Shown: in pieces, positions 45,197 to 55,972 of the stretch
How the letters are laid out: every line of letters begins with the position of its first letter
How positions within the stretch are numbered: the first letter of the stretch is position 1
Source: Microbacterium sp.
Lineage (GTDB): Bacteria; Actinomycetota; Actinomycetes; Actinomycetales; Microbacteriaceae
Assembly (NCBI GenBank): GCA_047605005.1
Contig: JASGGN010000005.1
Location: forward strand, 13,295-77,294
DNA: 64,000 nucleotides
Direction of reading: 5' to 3'
The notes under the pieces: model-generated
Databases searched by the model: none
What the model saw: only the letters and a program-made list of their open reading frames with translations
Told to the model about the DNA's origin: nothing
Translations under genes and position numbers: made by a program

Positions 45197-46156
45197 TCAA
45201 CGAGGCGGCTGGGTCCGGCGTCCTCTCCCGAGCGCAGCCGCGACGACGACCCCGGTGCCGGCGACGAGCACCATCGCGAGCTCCGCGGTCCAGCTCAACC
45301 CCGCCGTGGCCGGCCACACGGCATCCATCACCAGCGACGTCACGAGCTGCCCCGCGATCGAGCCGAGGCTCAGCAGCAGCACACCGGTGTGCACGACGAG
45401 CGCGGCCGACATGAAGATGTACGTCACTCCGATCACTCCACCCAGGTACAGCCAGGGCTCGGCCGGCAGCGGGTTCGGCGGGCCGGCGCTCACGACGTGG
45501 ACCACCGCGGCGATCGCGAGGATCACCGTGCCGCCGAAGAAGTTGACCAAGGTCGCCGTCAGGGGGCTGCCGACCCGCTGACGTAGGCGGCCGTTGGTCG
45601 CCTGCTGCCACGCGATGCCGATCCCGGTCAGCACGGGGAGCACGAGCATCCACCACGGGACGCGTTCGAGCACGCCGCTGTGCAGCGAGATCGCGACGCC
45701 CCCGAGCGCGAGCGCGCCGCCGCCCACGCGCGGCATCGTGACCGGGACGACCCCCGCCGGCCCGTAGCCGACGCGGTCCAGCAGCAGGCCCGACAGCGTC
45801 TGCCCGGCGACGACACCGACGGCGAACAGCGACAACCCGATGACCGCGACCGCGAGCCCCTGGGTTGCGACGGTGAGCGCGCCGGCGGCACCACCCGCCA
45901 GCATCCACCAGGGGATAGCGCGGGAGCGGATGCCGGTCGCGAGTGCCCGCACCCCGCGCCGTCCCGACGCGACGAGCGCCGACAGCGAGACGAGCGCGAG
46001 CAATCCCGACCCGAACGAGATGACCGCGGCGACGAAGCCGTCGCCCAGGCGAAGGCCGAGCTGTCCGTTGACGCGCGCCTGCGCTGCGGTCAGCACGCCG
46101 ACGAGCACCGCGCCGGCCAGAGCCATCGCCGCAGCAAGACGCGGGCGATCGTTCAC
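45197..46156 (-). CDS. DMT-superfamily transporter (YdcZ-like, duplicated domain)
   Basis: QARVNGQL, ISFGSG, PWW.LAGG; repeat QQATNGRL, PWLYLGG. Confidence 0.85.
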   Translation of the reverse strand: MNDRPRLAAAMALAGAVLVGVLTAAQARVNGQLGLRLGDGFVAAVISFGSGLLALVSLSALVASGRRGVRALATGIRSRAIPWWMLAGGAAGALTVATQGLAVAVIGLSLFAVGVVAGQTLSGLLLDRVGYGPAGVVPVTMPRVGGGALALGGVAISLHSGVLERVPWWMLVLPVLTGIGIAWQQATNGRLRQRVGSPLTATLVNFFGGTVILAIAAVVHVVSAGPPNPLPAEPWLYLGGVIGVTYIFMSAALVVHTGVLLLSLGSIAGQLVTSLVMDAVWPATAGLSWTAELAMVLVAGTGVVVAAALGRGRRTQPPR

Positions 46157-46202
46157 GGAGAGTCAGCCTACGGGCACGACGCCAGCAGCCACACGGGATG
46201 GG

Positions 46203-46275
46203 TGCCGGCTACAGGACTCGAACCTGCAACCCCCTGTTTACAAGACAGGTGCGCTACCAATTGCGCCAAGCCGGC
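46203..46275 (-). tRNA. tRNA-Thr (anticodon TGT)
   Basis: GCCGGCT TG GCGC AATTGGTA GCGC A CCTGT CTTGTAA ACAGG GGGTT GCAGG TTCGAGT CCTGT AGCCGGC A cloverleaf. Confidence 0.96.
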
Positions 46276-46319
46276 GAGGCGGTACCCAGTCTAGAGCGCC
46301 GGTCCACCGCGGCTCGCCG

Positions 46320-47303
46320 TCAGGGGGCCGTCGACCCCGTCGCGCTGGGGGTGGGCGTCGCGCTCGACTCCGTGACACTGGCGCTGGTCAGCACGAATTG
46401 GGCGAACTCGTCAGGATCGCTCATGTCGCCCACGTAGGCCTCGCCGTTGACGACGACGAGCGAGTTGCCGGTGAGAGCCAGCCCATCGGTGCCGTCGATG
46501 CCTGCGACCGCGCGCTCGGTGGCATCCTTCACCCACGCTGAGAACTGCTCGGACTCGATGCACGTGCGCAGCGTCTTGGGATCGTCACTGCCGTTGGCCA
46601 GCGCGATGTCGGCGAGGTCGTCGTTCGAGAAGCCGTCGGAGTCGATGTCAGGCTGGCGCTGCAGCAGGTCGTCGTTGAACTGGAAGAACGAATCGGGCGC
46701 GTACGTCGCGACGCACGCCGCGGCGTTCGCGGCGCGCAACGAGTACTTGGTGCCGTTCGACTTCGCCGTAAGCATCGCGACAGGATGATAGGTCAGGGTG
46801 ACGGCGCCCTCGGAGACCCACGCCGACAGCTGCGACGTGTTCGCCAGCTCCCACTCGCGCGCCGACGACGACAGGTAGTCGACGTACACGTGGATGCTGA
46901 CGGGGGCGGGTGCCGTCGCCGCGGCGGCCGTCGCTTCCCCCGCGGAGTCCTCCGTCGGCGTCGCCGCATCGTCGGGGGATGTGATCGACACCGCGCTGGC
47001 GATCGAGGTGACGACGAAACCGTCATCCTGGGCGCTCTCCGGCGACAGCTGCGGACGGCCGACGGCACTGCCGATGGCCCATGACACGACGACCGCGACG
47101 ACGGCGACCGCCGCGACGACCCCTGCACCCAGCACCGTGCGGCGGACCAGCCGCGCACGCGACTGCCGGATCTGCACCTGCTCCGCCTTCTCACGCACCG
47201 CGTCGCGTCGCCCCTGCAGGGGCTGCTCCGTCGTGTCCGTCGTGCTGACCTCGGAACCGCGGTCGTCGCCCGCCGGCACGTCGGTGGTGTCGTCGCTGGA
47301 CAT
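46320..47303 (-). CDS. Membrane-anchored DsbA/thioredoxin-fold protein lacking CxxC
   Basis: TM segment, VYVDYLSSSAREWE, YHPVAML, YSLRAANAAACV. Confidence 0.78.
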   Translation of the reverse strand: MSSDDTTDVPAGDDRGSEVSTTDTTEQPLQGRRDAVREKAEQVQIRQSRARLVRRTVLGAGVVAAVAVVAVVVSWAIGSAVGRPQLSPESAQDDGFVVTSIASAVSITSPDDAATPTEDSAGEATAAAATAPAPVSIHVYVDYLSSSAREWELANTSQLSAWVSEGAVTLTYHPVAMLTAKSNGTKYSLRAANAAACVATYAPDSFFQFNDDLLQRQPDIDSDGFSNDDLADIALANGSDDPKTLRTCIESEQFSAWVKDATERAVAGIDGTDGLALTGNSLVVVNGEAYVGDMSDPDEFAQFVLTSASVTESSATPTPSATGSTAP

Positions 47304-47545
47304 GGAACCTCTCGAAGCTTCTGCGAACGCCGCGCACCCGGCACCGCGATCCGTCGCCTCGGGGACGGCGACGCACACGATCGTAGAGCGCATCCCTGAG
47401 AAATGCCCAGACACGCACCTCTCTTTCCGAGACGGAGCGTGCGATACTGGGAGCACGCCCGACGTCGGGCGTGCGGAGCGAACCTCCGCTCATTCCATCA
47501 CTACGGATCGTCCGGCACGTACCTGCCGGTGAAGGAGAAGAAATC

Positions 47546-48643
<1,098 letters not shown>

Positions 48644-48652
48644 CCGACCCGA

Positions 48653-48697
48653 CCGCGGCGCGGGGTCCACGGTGTGACCATGGACCCCGCGCCGCGG
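48653..48697. terminator. GC-rich hairpin after the ABC ATPase
   Basis: CCGCGGCGCGGGGTCCA ... TGGACCCCGCGCCGCGG 17-bp stem. Confidence 0.7.
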
Positions 48698-48730
48698 CGT
48701 ATCCAAGACCCACGAAAGCAGCATTCCCCC

Positions 48731-50038
48731 GTGGTCGATTCCCTCAGCATCACCGCCTCCAGCATGGACGCGGGCCTGCTGAACCTCCCCTGGTCGACGC
48801 CTCTCGACGAATGGCATCGAGACCACATCGTCTCCCTCCCCAAGGGCCTTTCGCGCCACCTCGTGCGGTTCGCGAGCCTGTCCGGGCGCGTGATCGCCGT
48901 CAAGGAGACGACCGCCGAGATGGCACGACGCGAATACGACATGCTCGGCATGCTCGGACGCCTGGCGGTGCCGTGCGTCGATCGCGTCGCCGTGATCGAC
49001 GGGCGGCGAACGCCGAAGGGCGATCCGCTGCCGGCAGCCCTCGTGACCGCGCACTTGAAGTTCTCCCTGCCCTACCGCGCGCTGTTCACTCAGACGTTGC
49101 GCCCCGACACGGCCGGCCGGCTCGTCGACGCCCTCGCGGCCCTGCTGGTGCGCCTGCACACGGTCGGGTTCTTCTGGGGTGACGTCTCACTGTCGAACAC
49201 CCTGTTCCGGCGGGATGCCGGCGCATTCGCCGCCTATCTCGTCGACGCGGAGACCGGAGAACTGCACGAGACCGGCCTCACCCCGGGGCAGCGGGAGCAT
49301 GACCTCGATGTCGCGCGCACGAACATCGCGGGCGAGATCATGGACCTCGCCGCGGGTGGACGGCTCGAAGGCGGCGTGGATGCCGTGGCGATCGCCGATG
49401 GGATCGTGTCCTCCTACCGCTCCCTCTGGGCGGCCCTCACCGACCAGGAGTCCTTCTCCGCGGGCGAGTCGTGGCACATCACGGAGCGCGTCCAGCGCCT
49501 GAACGACCTCGGATTCGACATCGACGAGATGTCGATCGAGGCGACTCCCGACGGCACGCGCGTCTCGATCCAGCCCAAGGTCGTCGACGCCGGCCACCAC
49601 CAGCGGCGCCTGCTGCGGCTGACGGGACTCGACGTCGAGGAGAATCAGGCGCGGCGCCTGCTCAACGACATGGACGAGTTCCGCGCGCGCGTCTCACGCC
49701 TGGGCGCGGATGAGGACATGGTCGCCCACGAGTGGCTCACGCGCGTGTTCGAGCCGGTCGTCAAGGCGATCCCGTGGGACCTGCGCAGCAAGCTCGAGCC
49801 CGCCGAGGTGTTTCACCAGGTGCTCGAGCACCGGTGGTACATGTCGCAGGAGCGCGGGCAGTCGGTGCCGATCGCCGAGGCGCTCTCCGCGTACGTCGAC
49901 ACCGTGCTGCGCCACCGCCGCGACGAGGCGACCGTCATGGGCCCGCCCACCGACACCGTGTCGATCCCGGTGATCACCGGGGCACTCGACCTGAACGACG
50001 ATGAGGGCGACGAGGTCGACTGGCGCGACCTCGTCTGA
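48731..50038 (+). CDS. DUF4032 / LPS-kinase-like protein
   Basis: LPWSTPL..W, GLSRH.VRF, FWGDVSLSNTLFRRDAG, HQVLEHRWY.S. Confidence 0.85.
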   Translation: MVDSLSITASSMDAGLLNLPWSTPLDEWHRDHIVSLPKGLSRHLVRFASLSGRVIAVKETTAEMARREYDMLGMLGRLAVPCVDRVAVIDGRRTPKGDPLPAALVTAHLKFSLPYRALFTQTLRPDTAGRLVDALAALLVRLHTVGFFWGDVSLSNTLFRRDAGAFAAYLVDAETGELHETGLTPGQREHDLDVARTNIAGEIMDLAAGGRLEGGVDAVAIADGIVSSYRSLWAALTDQESFSAGESWHITERVQRLNDLGFDIDEMSIEATPDGTRVSIQPKVVDAGHHQRRLLRLTGLDVEENQARRLLNDMDEFRARVSRLGADEDMVAHEWLTRVFEPVVKAIPWDLRSKLEPAEVFHQVLEHRWYMSQERGQSVPIAEALSAYVDTVLRHRRDEATVMGPPTDTVSIPVITGALDLNDDEGDEVDWRDLV

Positions 50039-50737: not shown

Positions 50738-51736
50738 TCACTCGGATGCGGCGCGGATCGTGGCGATCTGATAGAGCGCGACGGATGCCGCGATGCCGAC
50801 GTTCAGCGACTCCGTCGCCGTCGAGATGGGGATCGACACGATCTGATCGCACGTCTCGGCGACCAGGCGCGACAGCCCCCTGCCCTCCGAGCCCGCCACG
50901 ATGACGACAGGTCGGTCGGCGAGCTCGAGACCGGGCAGCGAGACCTCTCCCCCGCCGTCGAGGCCGAGCACGAAGACGCCCTGCTTCTTGTACTCCTTGA
51001 GCGTCGTCGTCAGGTTGGCGGCCATCGCGACCGGGATGCGCGCGGCCGCACCAGCGCTCGTCTTCCACGCGGCCGAGGTCACGCCCGCAGACCGGCGCTG
51101 CGGGATGACGACACCCTGTCCGCCGAAAGCGGCGGTCGAGCGGATGATCGCGCCGAGGTTGCGCGGATCGGTCACGCCGTCCAGCGCGACGATCAGCGGC
51201 GTCGCACCGGCGTCGAAGATCTGCTCGAGGAGATCCTGAGGGTGCGCGTACTCGTACGGCGGCACCTTCAGCGCGACTCCCTGGTGGACACCGTCGAAAC
51301 CGGCCATGCGGTCCAGCTCGGGGCGGGTGACCTCCAGCACCGGGATCCCTCGGTGCGTCGCGATCGAGAGCATCTCCTTGACGCGGTCGTCCATTTCGAC
51401 GCGCTGGGCGATGTAGAGCGCGGTCGCCGGGATCTTCGCGCGCAGCGCTTCGAGCACGGAGTTGCGACCGGTCACGTTCTCGGTGTCATCCCCGGTCTTC
51501 GGCTTCGCCGTCCGGCCCGGGCTCGATCCCTGCGCACGCTGACCCGGGCGGCCTTTCCCCCCCGCGGCGGCGTAACGCTCAGCCGCGGCCTTGCGCTTGC
51601 CGGCGGGATGCCACGCGCGATCTTCGGCCTTCGGGGTCGGCCCCTTGCCCTCGAGGGCGCGCTTTCCCTTGCCGCCGCTGCCCTTCGTGGGCCCCTTGCC
51701 GCCCTTGGCGGCCCCGGGACGTCCTGGCTTAGCCAT
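50738..51736 (-). CDS. rlmB: 23S rRNA (Gm2251) 2'-O-methyltransferase
   Basis: GRNSVLEAL, HQGV, LDGVTDPRNLGAIIRS, GSEG.GL, ESLNV. Confidence 0.93.
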   Translation of the reverse strand: MAKPGRPGAAKGGKGPTKGSGGKGKRALEGKGPTPKAEDRAWHPAGKRKAAAERYAAAGGKGRPGQRAQGSSPGRTAKPKTGDDTENVTGRNSVLEALRAKIPATALYIAQRVEMDDRVKEMLSIATHRGIPVLEVTRPELDRMAGFDGVHQGVALKVPPYEYAHPQDLLEQIFDAGATPLIVALDGVTDPRNLGAIIRSTAAFGGQGVVIPQRRSAGVTSAAWKTSAGAAARIPVAMAANLTTTLKEYKKQGVFVLGLDGGGEVSLPGLELADRPVVIVAGSEGRGLSRLVAETCDQIVSIPISTATESLNVGIAASVALYQIATIRAASE

Positions 51737-53153
51737 CGATGCTCCAATGCGTTCCGTCCGGAGTGTCCTCCAGGGTGATCCCGGCCGCTGCGACGGCGTC
51801 GCGGATGCGGTCGGCTGCGGCCCAGTCCTTGCCCGCTCGCGCCTGCGCGCGCTGGGTGATCATCTCCTCCACGAGCGTGTCGAGTGCACGCGCCTCCATG
51901 CCGGCGCCGGCGCCGCACCACTGCGGATCGGCCGGATCGAGACCCAGGATGCCGGTCATCCGGCCGACCTCCACGAGGGCGCGTGCCGCGGCATCCGTCT
52001 CGCCTGCATCCAGCGCAGCGTTGCCGGCGCGCACCGTCTCATGCACGACCGCGAGCGCCTGGGGCACGCCCAGGTCGTCGTCGAGAGCCGCGGCGAAGGC
52101 ACGGGGAAGATCGGGAAGACCAGGAGGATCGGACAGGCCGGCAGCTGCGGCCGGGGCCGTGCCGAGCACGCGCGCCGCCCGCTGCTGGAAGGTGCGGATA
52201 CGTTCGAGCGCGGCTGCGGCCTCGTCGAAGGTGGTCGCGGTGATCTCCAGCGCGGAGCGGTAGTGCGCCGCCGCGAGCGCATAGCGCACGACGAGCGCAT
52301 CCTGTGCGGCGAGCACGTCATGCGCCAGCAGGAAGTTGCCGAGCGACTTGGACATCTTCTGGTCGCCGACCGTGACGAGCCCGTTGTGCAGCCAGTACCG
52401 GGCGAAGGCATCGCCGGCCGCGGTCGACTGCGCCAGCTCGTTCTCATGATGCGGGAAGCGCAGGTCGATGCCGCCGCCGTGGATGTCGAACTGCGCCCCC
52501 AGGTAGCGCCTGCTCATCGCCGAGCACTCGATGTGCCACCCGGGCCGCCCGGGGCCCCACGGCGAAGCCCATGCGGCATCCGTGGGCTCGTCGGGCTTGG
52601 CCGCCTTCCACAGCGCGAAGTCGCGCGGATCGCGCTTGCCGCGCTCGTCGGCGTCGCCCGCAGACGACATCGCATCGATGCTCTGGCGGGTGAGCGACCC
52701 GTACCCAGGCCACGAGCGCACATCGAAGTAGACGTCGCCGCCGGAGGCATACGCATGGCCGCGGTCGATGAGGAGTGCGATCAGATCGAGCATCTCCGGG
52801 ATCGAGCCGGTCGCGCGCGGCTCATACGTCGGCGGAAGGATGCCGATGGCGGCATATGCTGCACGGAACTCCTGCTCCATGCGGTAGGCGAGCGCCCACC
52901 AGGGCTCGGTCGCCGTCGCGTTCGCGAGCACTTTGTCGTCGATGTCGGTGACGTTGCGCACGAACGTGACGCGGCCGTAACGGTGCGAGAGCCAGCGCCG
53001 CAGCAGATCGAAGGCCAGCGCGGCCCGCAGGTGGTGGATGCCGGGTCCCGACTGCACCGTAGGGCCGCAGACGTAGATCGTGACGTTGTCGGGGGTGAGG
53101 GGAGCGAACTCACGCAGGGCCTGCGCCTGGGTGTCGTAGAGCCGGACCGTCAC
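51729..53153 (-). CDS. cysS: Cysteine--tRNA ligase with atypical HIGH motif (GIHH)
   Basis: YVCGPTV, RNVTDIDDK, DFALWK, GRPGWHIECSAM, DIHGGG.DL.FPHHENE, KMSKSLGN; cysS-rlmB synteny. Confidence 0.95.
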   Translation of the reverse strand: MTVRLYDTQAQALREFAPLTPDNVTIYVCGPTVQSGPGIHHLRAALAFDLLRRWLSHRYGRVTFVRNVTDIDDKVLANATATEPWWALAYRMEQEFRAAYAAIGILPPTYEPRATGSIPEMLDLIALLIDRGHAYASGGDVYFDVRSWPGYGSLTRQSIDAMSSAGDADERGKRDPRDFALWKAAKPDEPTDAAWASPWGPGRPGWHIECSAMSRRYLGAQFDIHGGGIDLRFPHHENELAQSTAAGDAFARYWLHNGLVTVGDQKMSKSLGNFLLAHDVLAAQDALVVRYALAAAHYRSALEITATTFDEAAAALERIRTFQQRAARVLGTAPAAAAGLSDPPGLPDLPRAFAAALDDDLGVPQALAVVHETVRAGNAALDAGETDAAARALVEVGRMTGILGLDPADPQWCGAGAGMEARALDTLVEEMITQRAQARAGKDWAAADRIRDAVAAAGITLEDTPDGTHWSIDG

Positions 53154-53227: not shown

Positions 53228-54226
53228 ATGCTGCACGTGCTCGCCGTCCTCGCCGCCGCTGTGCTCTTCGGCACCACCGGCACCTCGCAGGCGCTCGGCC
53301 CCGATGGCACGACGCCGCTGTCGGTCGGCGCCGTCCGGATGGTGATCGGCGGCACGGGGCTCGCCGTGCTGGCGTTCGCACTCGCGGGCCGGCACCGGCG
53401 GCGGCATCCCTCCGCCGGGCGCCCGCGCGCCGGCATCCGTCCCGTTCTGCTCATGGCCCTCACCGGTCTGTGTCTCGCGGTCTACCAGCCCCTGTTCTTC
53501 CTCGGCACAGCACGCAACGGCGTCGCCGTGAGCACGGTCATCGCGCTGGGATCGGCGCCCGTGCTCGCGGGGCTGCTGGAGTGGCCGCTCACGCGGCGGT
53601 TGCCTTCGACGACGTGGATGGCGGCGACGGGTCTTGCCACGGTCGGCGTCGTTCTGCTCGGGCTCGGCGGCGCCAGCGGATCGGGAGGCACCGATCCGCT
53701 CGGCGTCGCCGGGGCGATCGGCGCGGGGGCCTCGTTCGCCGTTTTCACGAACGTGCAGCGGCGTCTGCTGGATGCCGGGTGGGACGCCTTCACGGTCGTC
53801 GGGGGCATGGGGGTGAGCTCGGCGCTCGTGAGCGCGGCAGCCCTGCCGCTGATCGACGCGTCGTGGATCGGGCAGCCGCGGGGACTGGTGATGGCGCTCT
53901 GGCTCGGGCTTGCGACGACCGCGATCGCGTATGTGCTGTTCACCTGGGGGCTGCAGAGGCTGTCCGCGGCGACGGCCGCCACCCTGACTCTCGGCGAGCC
54001 GCTGACGGCAACCCTCCTCGGGGTCACGGTCCTCGGTGAGCGGCTGTCGGTCGCAGCGCTCGCAGGCGTCCTCGTGCTCGCCGCGGGGCTCGCGCTGCTC
54101 GCGCGGGGCGCAAGCCGCGCCCGCGGCTCCTCCCCTTCCCCTGACTCTCCCGCGAGTCACCACGCGCCTCACGAATCACCAGCGCCCACGCGCGAGCGGA
54201 CTGGTGACTCGCGAGCGGACTGGTGA
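53228..54226 (+). CDS. EamA/DMT family transporter
   Basis: LFGTTGT, YQPLFF.G...GVA, LTLGEPLTA.LLG...LGE. Confidence 0.9.
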   Translation: MLHVLAVLAAAVLFGTTGTSQALGPDGTTPLSVGAVRMVIGGTGLAVLAFALAGRHRRRHPSAGRPRAGIRPVLLMALTGLCLAVYQPLFFLGTARNGVAVSTVIALGSAPVLAGLLEWPLTRRLPSTTWMAATGLATVGVVLLGLGGASGSGGTDPLGVAGAIGAGASFAVFTNVQRRLLDAGWDAFTVVGGMGVSSALVSAAALPLIDASWIGQPRGLVMALWLGLATTAIAYVLFTWGLQRLSAATAATLTLGEPLTATLLGVTVLGERLSVAALAGVLVLAAGLALLARGASRARGSSPSPDSPASHHAPHESPAPTRERTGDSRADW

Positions 54227-54258: not shown

Positions 54259-55467
54259 TCAGGGGTGCGGCAGGACGAGCGCGACAGCGTAGGCAGCGAC
54301 GCCCTCTCCTGCGCCCGTGAAGCCCAGACCGTCGGTCGTCGTCGCGGCGACCGACACCGGCGCCCCGAGCACGCCCGACAGAGCCGCCTCGGCCTCGGCC
54401 CGCCGCGCCGCGAAACGCGGACGGTTCGCCTGGAACTGCACCGACACGCTCCCGATCGAAAACCCCGCCCCTTCGACGAGCTCCCGCGTGCGGGCCAGGA
54501 AGTCCTCGGCGTGCGCGCCCGCGAACTCGGGCCGCGCCGTGCCGAAGTGCGTGCCGATGTCACCGAGCCCGGCCGCGGCCAGCACCGCATCGACGATCGC
54601 GTGCGCGACCGCGTCGCCGTCCGAGTGCCCGCGCAGCGCGGGCTCACCGGGCCACCGCAGACCCGCGAGCCAGAGCGCGCCCTCGCCGCCGAAAGCGTGC
54701 ACATCGGTGCCGATGCCGATCCGTGGCGCGCCAGCGACCGTGACAACGGCGTCCGCCACGCCGCGCGGCGCGGCGCCCAGCAGCAGTCTGGCCCGCTCGA
54801 GATCGGCCGCGGTCGTGATCTTGAACGCCCGCTCGTCGCCGCGGACCGTCCACACCTCGACCCCCGAGGCCTGCACAAGCGCGGCGTCGTCGGAATGGTC
54901 GACGACGGCATCCGCATATGCGGCATCCAGCACCGTCCGCCGGAAGCCCTGCGGCGTTTGCGCGGCGGCCAGCACCGACCGGTCGACGGGCTCGACGACG
55001 AGGTCGCCGTCGACCCGCTTGATCGTGTCGACGACCGGCAGCACCGGCAGCACGGCGTCGTGACCGGCCGCGAGCGCGGCGATCACGCGCGTGAAGACAT
55101 CGGGAGGCGTCAGGGCGCGCGCCGCATCGTGGACGAGGACGAGCTCGACATCGGCCCAGACGGCGCCGAGGCCGGCCGCAACGGATGCCTGACGGGTCGC
55201 GCCGCCCGCGACGACGCTGACGAGGTCCCGGCGGTCTCCCGCGGCCTCGCGCGCCTCGGTCACGGCATCGCCGACACGATCCTCCGGCGCGACGACGATC
55301 ACCTGCGCGGTCGGTGCCGCGAAGACCCCCGCGAGCGCGTGCCGGAGGACGCTGTGCTCGTCGATGCCCACCAACGCCTTCGGAGACGCCGCGCCGAGGC
55401 GCTGCCCCGATCCTGCCGCGACGACGACGACGGCGATGCGCGGAACGGGGACGGGAGAGGTCGTCAT
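54259..55467 (-). CDS. ispDF: Bifunctional IspD/IspF (MEP pathway)
   Basis: AAGSG.RLG...PKA, VHDAAR, QTPQGF, then GIGTDVH, GHSDGD..AHA..DA, ATTTDGLGFTG. Confidence 0.93.
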   Translation of the reverse strand: MTTSPVPVPRIAVVVVAAGSGQRLGAASPKALVGIDEHSVLRHALAGVFAAPTAQVIVVAPEDRVGDAVTEAREAAGDRRDLVSVVAGGATRQASVAAGLGAVWADVELVLVHDAARALTPPDVFTRVIAALAAGHDAVLPVLPVVDTIKRVDGDLVVEPVDRSVLAAAQTPQGFRRTVLDAAYADAVVDHSDDAALVQASGVEVWTVRGDERAFKITTAADLERARLLLGAAPRGVADAVVTVAGAPRIGIGTDVHAFGGEGALWLAGLRWPGEPALRGHSDGDAVAHAIVDAVLAAAGLGDIGTHFGTARPEFAGAHAEDFLARTRELVEGAGFSIGSVSVQFQANRPRFAARRAEAEAALSGVLGAPVSVAATTTDGLGFTGAGEGVAAYAVALVLPHP

Positions 55468-55489
55468 ACCTCGGGGACGAGCGAGCAGG

Positions 55490-55972
55490 TCAGCTCGCGA
55501 GGACCTCGTCGAGCACACCGGAGGCGTGCTCCTCGTCGGCCTTGAGAGCAAGAGCGATCTCGGAGACGAGGATCTGCCGCGCCTTCGCGAGCATGCGCTT
55601 CTCACCGGCGGACAGCCCGCGGTCCTGATCGCGGCGCCACAGGTCGCGCACGACCTCGGACACCTTGATCACGTCGCCCGAGGCGAGCTTCTCAAGGTTC
55701 GCCTTGTAGCGGCGCGACCAGTTGGTCGGCTCCTCGGTGAACGCGGCGCGCAACACGTCGAAGACGCGCTCGAGACCGTCCTTGCCGATCACGTCGCGAA
55801 CGCCGACCAGATCGACGTTGTCCGCCGGGACCTCGATGATGAGGTCACCCTGCGTGACGTTCAGCTTCAGATACTTCTTGGTCTCGCCCTTGATGATCCG
55901 GTCTTTGACCTCGATGATCGTCGCGGCGCCGTGGTGCGGATAAACGACCGTCTCGCCAACCTCAAACAGCAT
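55490..55972 (-). CDS. carD: CarD transcription factor
   Basis: [32 protein letters not shown]. Confidence 0.96.

Follow-up and report, generated by a model that had tools for sequence, protein, structure and literature searches.

The cysteinyl-tRNA synthetase (CysRS) encoded by cysS of a Microbacterium sp. carries a permuted form of the class I signature motif, Gly-Ile-His-His (GIHH) in place of His-Ile-Gly-His (HIGH). The gene lies on contig JASGGN010000005.1 of assembly GCA_047605005.1, within the 64-kb stretch of DNA that was analysed here and that we refer to as the window; the genome to which it belongs is a metagenome-assembled genome (MAG) of 2.40 Mb, in 96 contigs and 83% complete. 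HIGH is one of the two motifs that define all class I aminoacyl-tRNA synthetases, and its first His and its Gly have been considered nearly untouchable. We propose that the GIHH protein is an active enzyme and the sole housekeeping CysRS of its host, working through a permuted active site. To this reading we assign a probability of roughly 85%, with lower confidence in its atomic detail.

The permutation itself is plain from the DNA. On the minus strand, positions 53048-53025 read GGA CCC GGC ATC CAC CAC CTG CGG, which places the motif of the product (P0001) in the context YVCGPTVQSGP-GIHH-LRAALAFD. In a gapless phmmer alignment with the E. coli enzyme (1LI5, E=5.6e-109), G38-I39-H40-H41 fall in exact register with H37-I38-G39-H40. 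The canonical CysRS form, H-x-G-H/N, is absent, its residues being present in permuted order (G-I-H-H); what is found is the swapped form, with Gly or Ala at position 1, a hydrophobic residue at position 2 and His at positions 3 and 4, in register with HXGH. The remaining CysRS motifs (KMSKS, WHIEC, FPHHENE and DIDDK) are all present, and the open reading frame is uninterrupted, with no frameshift, internal stop or other decay. An earlier sequence-only reading of this DNA had described the GIHH motif in these terms, counting four nucleotide changes from the ancestral codons and noting that the swap creates a copy of the heptamer GGCATCC, and it was correct in all details: canonical relatives read CAC ATC GGN CAC, and the heptamer copy lies at 53036-53042. 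The features discussed in this study are collected in Table 1.

Table 1. Positions in the window of cysS, of the elements within it and of its neighbours
Feature	Positions	Strand	Basis or remark
cysS, cysteine--tRNA ligase, 474 aa, GTG start	51729..53153	(-)	open reading frame and translation, TIGR00435, 1LI5 match, AF2 model
Permuted class I signature G38-I39-H40-H41 (GGC ATC CAC CAC) replacing H-I-G-H	53031..53042	(-)	translation and E. coli alignment
Word CGGCATCC (GGATGCCG as its reverse complement), made up of Pro37 (last base), Gly38, Ile39 and His40 (first base)	53036..53043	(-)	
Helix alpha1 residues L42-R43-A44-A45-L46-A47	53013..53030	(-)	sequence comparison
G263-D264-Q265 followed by KMSKS (266-270)	52344..52367	(-)	sequence comparison
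SpoU/TrmH-family RNA 2'-O-methyltransferase (RlmB-like)	50738..51736	(-)	downstream; adjoins cysS in nearly all relatives examined
EamA-family (DMT) transporter	53228..54226	(+)	divergent upstream neighbour of cysS
Fused ispD-ispF	54259..55605	(-)	usual upstream context of cysS

The TIGR00435 cysS profile scores the protein at 428.8 bits against a cut-off of 340, with residues 4-471 on model positions 2-464, and both the profile and the 1LI5 alignment give a full-length match that includes the anticodon-binding region. The zinc ligands C29, C210, H235 and E239 (C28, C209, H234 and E238 in E. coli) are invariant across a 60-sequence alignment, as is KMSKS (52344-52358). In an AlphaFold2 (AF2) model, with a predicted local distance difference test score of 92.2 overall and of 96-98 around the motif, GIHH follows the strand formed by residues 23-28 and occupies the N-terminal tip of helix alpha1, which spans residues 39-59. 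The fold of the model matches 1U0B (the best match, TM-score 0.82), 3TQO, 8QHP and 1LI5, within a TM range of 0.73-0.91.

The permuted motif is shared by a group of Microbacterium species. A DNA pattern for V-Q-x-G-P-G-I-H-H gave one match in each of 22 of the 401 sampled species of the genus, and a reversed control pattern gave zero matches in these 22 genomes, 16 of which belong to the 349 high-quality genomes and several of which are single-contig or closed. They come from soil, sludge and plant-associated Microbacterium. Among 40 relatives, the two nearest species also had GIHH and all the others PH[IVL]GH. Among the 121 nearest protein clusters at 90% identity, 44 read PGIHH and one PGVHH, the GIHH clusters being drawn from NCBI isolates (e.g. 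M. memoriense) and from JGI, ENA and Logan assemblies. Outside the genus the swap was not seen: all 145 readable CysRS representatives (50%-identity clusters) have H-x-G, followed by H or N in 144 and by D in one, and all of the 78 loci that could be read in other genera and phyla are likewise canonical. Because H-x-G is kept in all 145 representatives, chance does not explain GIHH. The idea that GIHH might already be common among CysRS orthologs thus holds inside one Microbacterium subclade and fails for CysRS at large.

Two observations on annotation belong here. A MetRS-type Pfam match is absent from the top-ranked clusters, which are the GIHH clusters; motif-based annotation and matches to profile hidden Markov models weaken on such sequences, and a GIHH CysRS could be mis-flagged as defective. 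In addition, one database protein of 676 aa (P0069), on a 6-kb contig, joins the N-terminal part of a GIHH CysRS to MMPL/RND-type Pfam domains, which probably reflects a chimeric gene call or an error of assembly.

The sequence-only reading had raised a second cysteinylation route as a possibility. It finds no support in searches for a second cysS, MshC or SepRS above cut-off. With the family model, one CysRS above the cut-off was found in each of five GIHH genomes (the window MAG and four that are 100% complete), the further matches being weak and to LeuRS and MetRS. No SepRS above cut-off was found, and no MshC-like second match was found in the searched Microbacterium genomes. The GIHH CysRS itself scores 252.7 bits with the MshC profile TIGR03447, well under the cut-off of 485.1. 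The pattern of substitution is that of a gene under constraint: pairwise comparison of cysS within the GIHH clade gives a nonsynonymous divergence (dN) of 0.13, a synonymous divergence (dS) of 0.71 and a ratio (omega) of 0.18, against an omega of 0.22 for canonical Microbacterium cysS. Across the clade the two His residues are written with either CAC or CAT, and Val once stands at position 2; G-x-H-H is unchanged throughout. From its status as sole copy in complete genomes and from purifying selection, we infer that the GIHH CysRS charges tRNA-Cys, and the suggestion of a viable non-canonical active site, further backed by a motif shared across a clade, is to that extent upheld.

Beyond the GIHH clade, the copy number of CysRS-like genes varies. 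Almost all sampled Microbacterium have a single CysRS-family match, and most other families of the same order have two (CysRS and MshC); the genus appears to lack the mycothiol ligase. A second CysRS-like gene occurs in a few canonical-motif Microbacterium genomes, as in G014 (contig C8, 1210-2631; 55% identity in that genome), with further such matches in G095, G270, G349, G370 and G242. As for the other class I enzymes, MetRS (PHIGH), LeuRS (HMGH) and TyrRS (HLGN) of the window's genome are canonical, and IleRS, read in two complete genomes of the GIHH clade, has canonical PHYGH; by these motifs CysRS is the only permuted synthetase among those read. The ileS of the MAG is split inside its signature motif (...GLPHY / HLLTGY...), between the first 145 bases of contig C37 and the last bases of contig C94 of G000, both on the minus strand. 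Since complete relatives read PHYGH, this split is an assembly break and no variant.

A published precedent for the swap, absent from the sequence-only reading, is the G/AXHH motif of IleRS2 (Brkic et al., Nat Commun 2023, PMC10485003). Natural and engineered G/AXHH forms of IleRS2 keep kcat/KM within about 10-fold, and the swap raises the Ki for mupirocin 200- to 1000-fold (hyper-resistance). Crystal structures show the N-epsilon2 of the third-position His in the place of its counterpart on the first His, and tolerance of the swap is attributed to a helix alpha1 tip displaced by 1.7 A from the adenine (PMC10485003). The swap is there termed "adopted exclusively in IleRS2", and CysRS occurs 0 times in that paper; our literature searches on such motif variants turned up no works beyond this paper and PMC13752280, and no report on CysRS. 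On this comparison of sequences, the Microbacterium CysRS is the second synthetase family with the same natural permutation. By analogy with IleRS2 G/AXHH, the imidazole of His40 would take over the transition-state contact of the first His in cysteine activation, and Gly38, together with a slightly repositioned alpha1 tip, would make room for the adenine and avoid a clash.

How the motif arose can be outlined from codons and trees. From canonical CAC ATC GGN CAC to variant GGC ATC CAY CAY at least four substitutions are needed, and at either position the paths pass through an intermediate with Arg or Asp. Neither these (Arg or Asp at position 1 or 3) nor HIHH or GIGH turned up among 166 unique genus-level sequences, the motif not having been read individually in all 401 genomes. 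Two other routes were rejected by inspection. A simple inversion, which the sequence-only reading had also discounted, does not yield the variant, as the reverse complement of CACATCGGC is GCCGATGTG; and no single insertion or deletion yields GIHH. With the protein data, a tree in which GIHH is monophyletic is likelier than the free quick tree (approximately unbiased test, p-AU 0.70), and monophyly is not rejected by codons (p 0.155) or by rpoB (p 0.195). The rpoB tree, whose sequences were chosen with an rpoB motif filter, has 13 of 14 GIHH genomes in one clade (support 98/97). A single origin within the genus is the simplest reading of these trees: positions 1 and 3 of the signature would have been exchanged, most simply once, and GIHH would then have been kept by purifying selection in a subclade that makes up about 5% of the sampled species.

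The exchange probably fell on a background that was already suited to it. L42 and A47 are fixed in 49 of 49 GIHH sequences and G-D precedes KMSKS in 98-100% of them, whereas canonical Microbacterium sequences mostly have V42, S47 and D/G-G. One canonical sequence, L009, shares L42, A47 and G263-D264 with the GIHH sequences, which suggests that this permissive background preceded the swap. The dipeptide G263-D264 may matter by its place directly before the KMSKS loop, since the two motifs approach each other in IleRS2. Within residues 1-330 there are no clade-specific compensatory substitutions at a strict threshold (>=85% vs <=15%); only softer associations were found (L42, A47, R57, G263-D264 and Q323), and these also occur in some canonical relatives.

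Two rival explanations have to be set beside the evidence above. That GIHH is an artefact of assembly, binning or sequencing in this MAG, one of the options left by the sequence-only reading, could be argued from the fragmentation and incompleteness of the genome and from the fact that its own reads were not retrieved. Assemblies of 21 other species, closed chromosomes included, carry the same motif with differing synonymous codons, as do a further 44 protein clusters of diverse provenance. Because these independent assemblies share the motif, the artefact is untenable, and we give it practically no weight. The other explanation is a crippled or repurposed CysRS, with Cys-tRNA-Cys supplied by another enzyme or with the protein confined to a different reaction, as an MshC-like ligase or in persulfide synthesis only. 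It draws on the fact that, within HIGH, the first His and the Gly are the most conserved class I positions, and on the roughly 1000-fold cost of mutating the first His in other synthetases (PMC10485003). Set against it are the lack of any other CysRS-family gene in complete genomes and of a SepRS, the low MshC score, the full-length match with its anticodon-binding region, and an omega on par with that of canonical orthologues. We regard this explanation as very improbable, if somewhat less so than an artefact.

Several points weigh against the proposal of an active, sole CysRS. The same swap abolishes the activity of IleRS1 (PMC10485003), and archaeal IleRS-A is inactivated by it as well, in a 2026 paper that names the variant "GIHH" (PMC13752280); because of these two cases, tolerance of the swap is context-dependent and cannot be assumed for CysRS. 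The evidence on the GIHH CysRS itself comes from its sequence and a predicted model, and the AF2 model was built on a mostly canonical alignment, so that a shift of alpha1 would not appear in it. The MAG being 83% complete, the failure to find a second gene in it would count for little by itself, and it is the complete relatives that carry the point. No sequencing run with more than 5% of the MAG's sampled words was found, nor were reads of the source sample; at 85% likeness, four of the runs examined yielded nothing beyond fragments of relatives over the conserved NVTDIDDK and left 53030-53041 uncovered, which is uninformative either way. Finally, unconstrained gene trees split the GIHH sequences into three to five neighbouring groups with very short branches between them, and the rpoB tree places G005 apart and the canonical G012 as sister to the main GIHH clade. 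As alternatives to a single origin, these placements would allow G012 to have reverted or the G005 group to have gained the motif separately. The interleaving canonical sequences (L004, L005, L013 and L055) all have V42, and all except L013 have S47; because GIHH sequences have L42 and A47, the interleavers do not look like revertants.

What brought the swap to fixation in an active CysRS may be approached from the enzyme or from the DNA. By the example of mupirocin and IleRS2, His at position 3 could keep out a natural inhibitor that competitors produce against the adenylate site of CysRS, an adaptive modification of the target. Such an inhibitor would bear on the retention of the swap and would not conflict with an active enzyme. 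The identical exchange in IleRS2 buys its resistance at little catalytic cost (PMC10485003), purifying selection holds the motif in bacteria of soil, sludge and plants, and a four-nucleotide change through poor intermediates is more easily fixed when the benefit is strong. For all that, our literature search found no natural inhibitor directed at CysRS, the swap has no linked genes for resistance or biosynthesis, and its presence in about 5% of the sampled species of one genus and in none of the 145 other CysRS lineages differs from its wide spread in IleRS2. We consider adaptive target modification unlikely, attractive as the analogy is. The same holds for the more elaborate view that the swap is a recurrent convergent solution and no peculiarity of IleRS2, fixed through an undiscovered inhibitor of the cysteinyl-adenylate site and spread perhaps with the aid of CGGCATCC; we think it improbable to a like degree.

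A somewhat better, if still doubtful, case can be made for near-neutral fixation on the permissive background, possibly aided by the hyper-abundance of the word CGGCATCC. A bias at the level of DNA (uptake, repair or recombination) toward this word could spread the allele by drive and by recombination between species. The heptamer GGCATCC/GGATGCC has 125 copies in the window (e.g. at 802, 3034 and 53036) where 16.6 are expected, a 7.5-fold excess, and 4766 copies in the 2.4-Mb genome, or one per 503 bp. C is favoured at position -1 (65%), and the heptamer occurs in three reading contexts, among them GAT-GCC and GCA-TCC with the rare codons GAT and GCA. The heptamer is not oriented by strand in the manner of Chi or KOPS: each orientation has 2004 copies, and these do not correlate with the GC skew of the contigs. 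In the GIHH clade, synonymous sites that fall within the word are frozen (Gly38 is GGC in 22 of 22 and the preceding base C in 20 of 22), while outside it Gly36 is GGC in 13 of 22 and both His codons vary, in genes with a pairwise dS near 0.7. This pattern is suggestive only, since the relatedness of the species makes them non-independent observations and since GGC and ATC are preferred codons anyway. Incongruent gene trees fit some recombination, and canonical L009 has the same background residues as the GIHH sequences. The 15 genome copies of the 12-mer GGCATCCACCAC could, speculatively, template a short conversion, against which stands the lack of homology beyond the 12-mer at the other copies. 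A further point against help from the word is that HIGH is retained by 95% of species; the reader of the word and the drive are themselves hypothetical. As to the His40 codon (53034-53036), directly after the word, there is a shift toward the rarer codon: the third-position His is CAT in 9 of 16 GIHH loci, and the first-position His of canonical loci is CAT in 2 of 37.

The neighbours of cysS were also considered. In the window the EamA gene forms an insertion between ispDF and cysS, 74 bp from the latter, and a subset of both GIHH and HIGH lineages has it. The EamA family includes exporters of cysteine and O-acetylserine. A link of this transporter to the swap was rejected, as it is present with both motif types and absent from some GIHH loci. 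Further along, the region at 47387-50038 (+) and 45197-47489 (-) encodes a CysA/MalK-type ABC ATPase with a CysA C-terminal regulatory domain, a DUF4032 protein, a thioredoxin-like protein and a YdcZ-type DMT exporter.

The GXHH motif of IleRS2 was until now the only documented natural exception to HIGH and has been presented as an antibiotic-resistance device unique to that enzyme. The same permutation in the only, essential copy of a second family would make the swap a convergent solution. The GIHH CysRS, small (474 aa) and of the monomer type, may serve as a model for what lets a class I site tolerate the swap, with L42, A47 and G263-D264 as candidate permissive sites. It also raises the question of whether a natural CysRS inhibitor exists in the habitats of Microbacterium.

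How far the GIHH CysRS resembles known systems depends on the level at which it is compared. As with hyper-abundant genomic words such as DNA uptake and uptake signal sequences (DUS/USS), Chi and HIP1, the swapped codons form one copy of a word and the synonymous sites inside it are invariant; CGGCATCC/GGATGCCG is, in contrast, a DNA-level feature that overlaps the motif and no property of the enzyme. MshC, the Cys:GlcN-Ins ligase that is the actinobacterial paralogue of CysRS, has a homologous catalytic domain (8HFM/3C8Z, E=1.8e-53), but the GIHH CysRS falls below the MshC cut-off, and MshC itself keeps canonical H-x-G-H. E. coli CysS (1LI5, 1LI7 and 1U0B) is 41% identical over its full length and shares the zinc site, KMSKS, the anticodon-binding domain and the fold, with TM-scores of 0.82-0.91; it differs in having HIGH where the Microbacterium enzyme has GIHH. 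From IleRS2 the GIHH protein is set apart as a CysRS, outside the IleRS2 (HUP-2) lineage, with a swap confined to one subclade of one genus where that of IleRS2 is widespread, and with Ala at position 1 not seen; mupirocin kinetics and crystal structures describe IleRS2, a sequence and a predicted model the GIHH CysRS. Yet the likeness to IleRS2 is close: in both, positions 1 (His) and 3 (Gly) of HXGH are exchanged, with a hydrophobic residue kept at position 2 and His at position 4, and in both the motif is natural, is distributed by clade and lies at the alpha1 tip of a Rossmann/HUP fold, the housekeeping role of the enzyme being a probable one for the GIHH CysRS.

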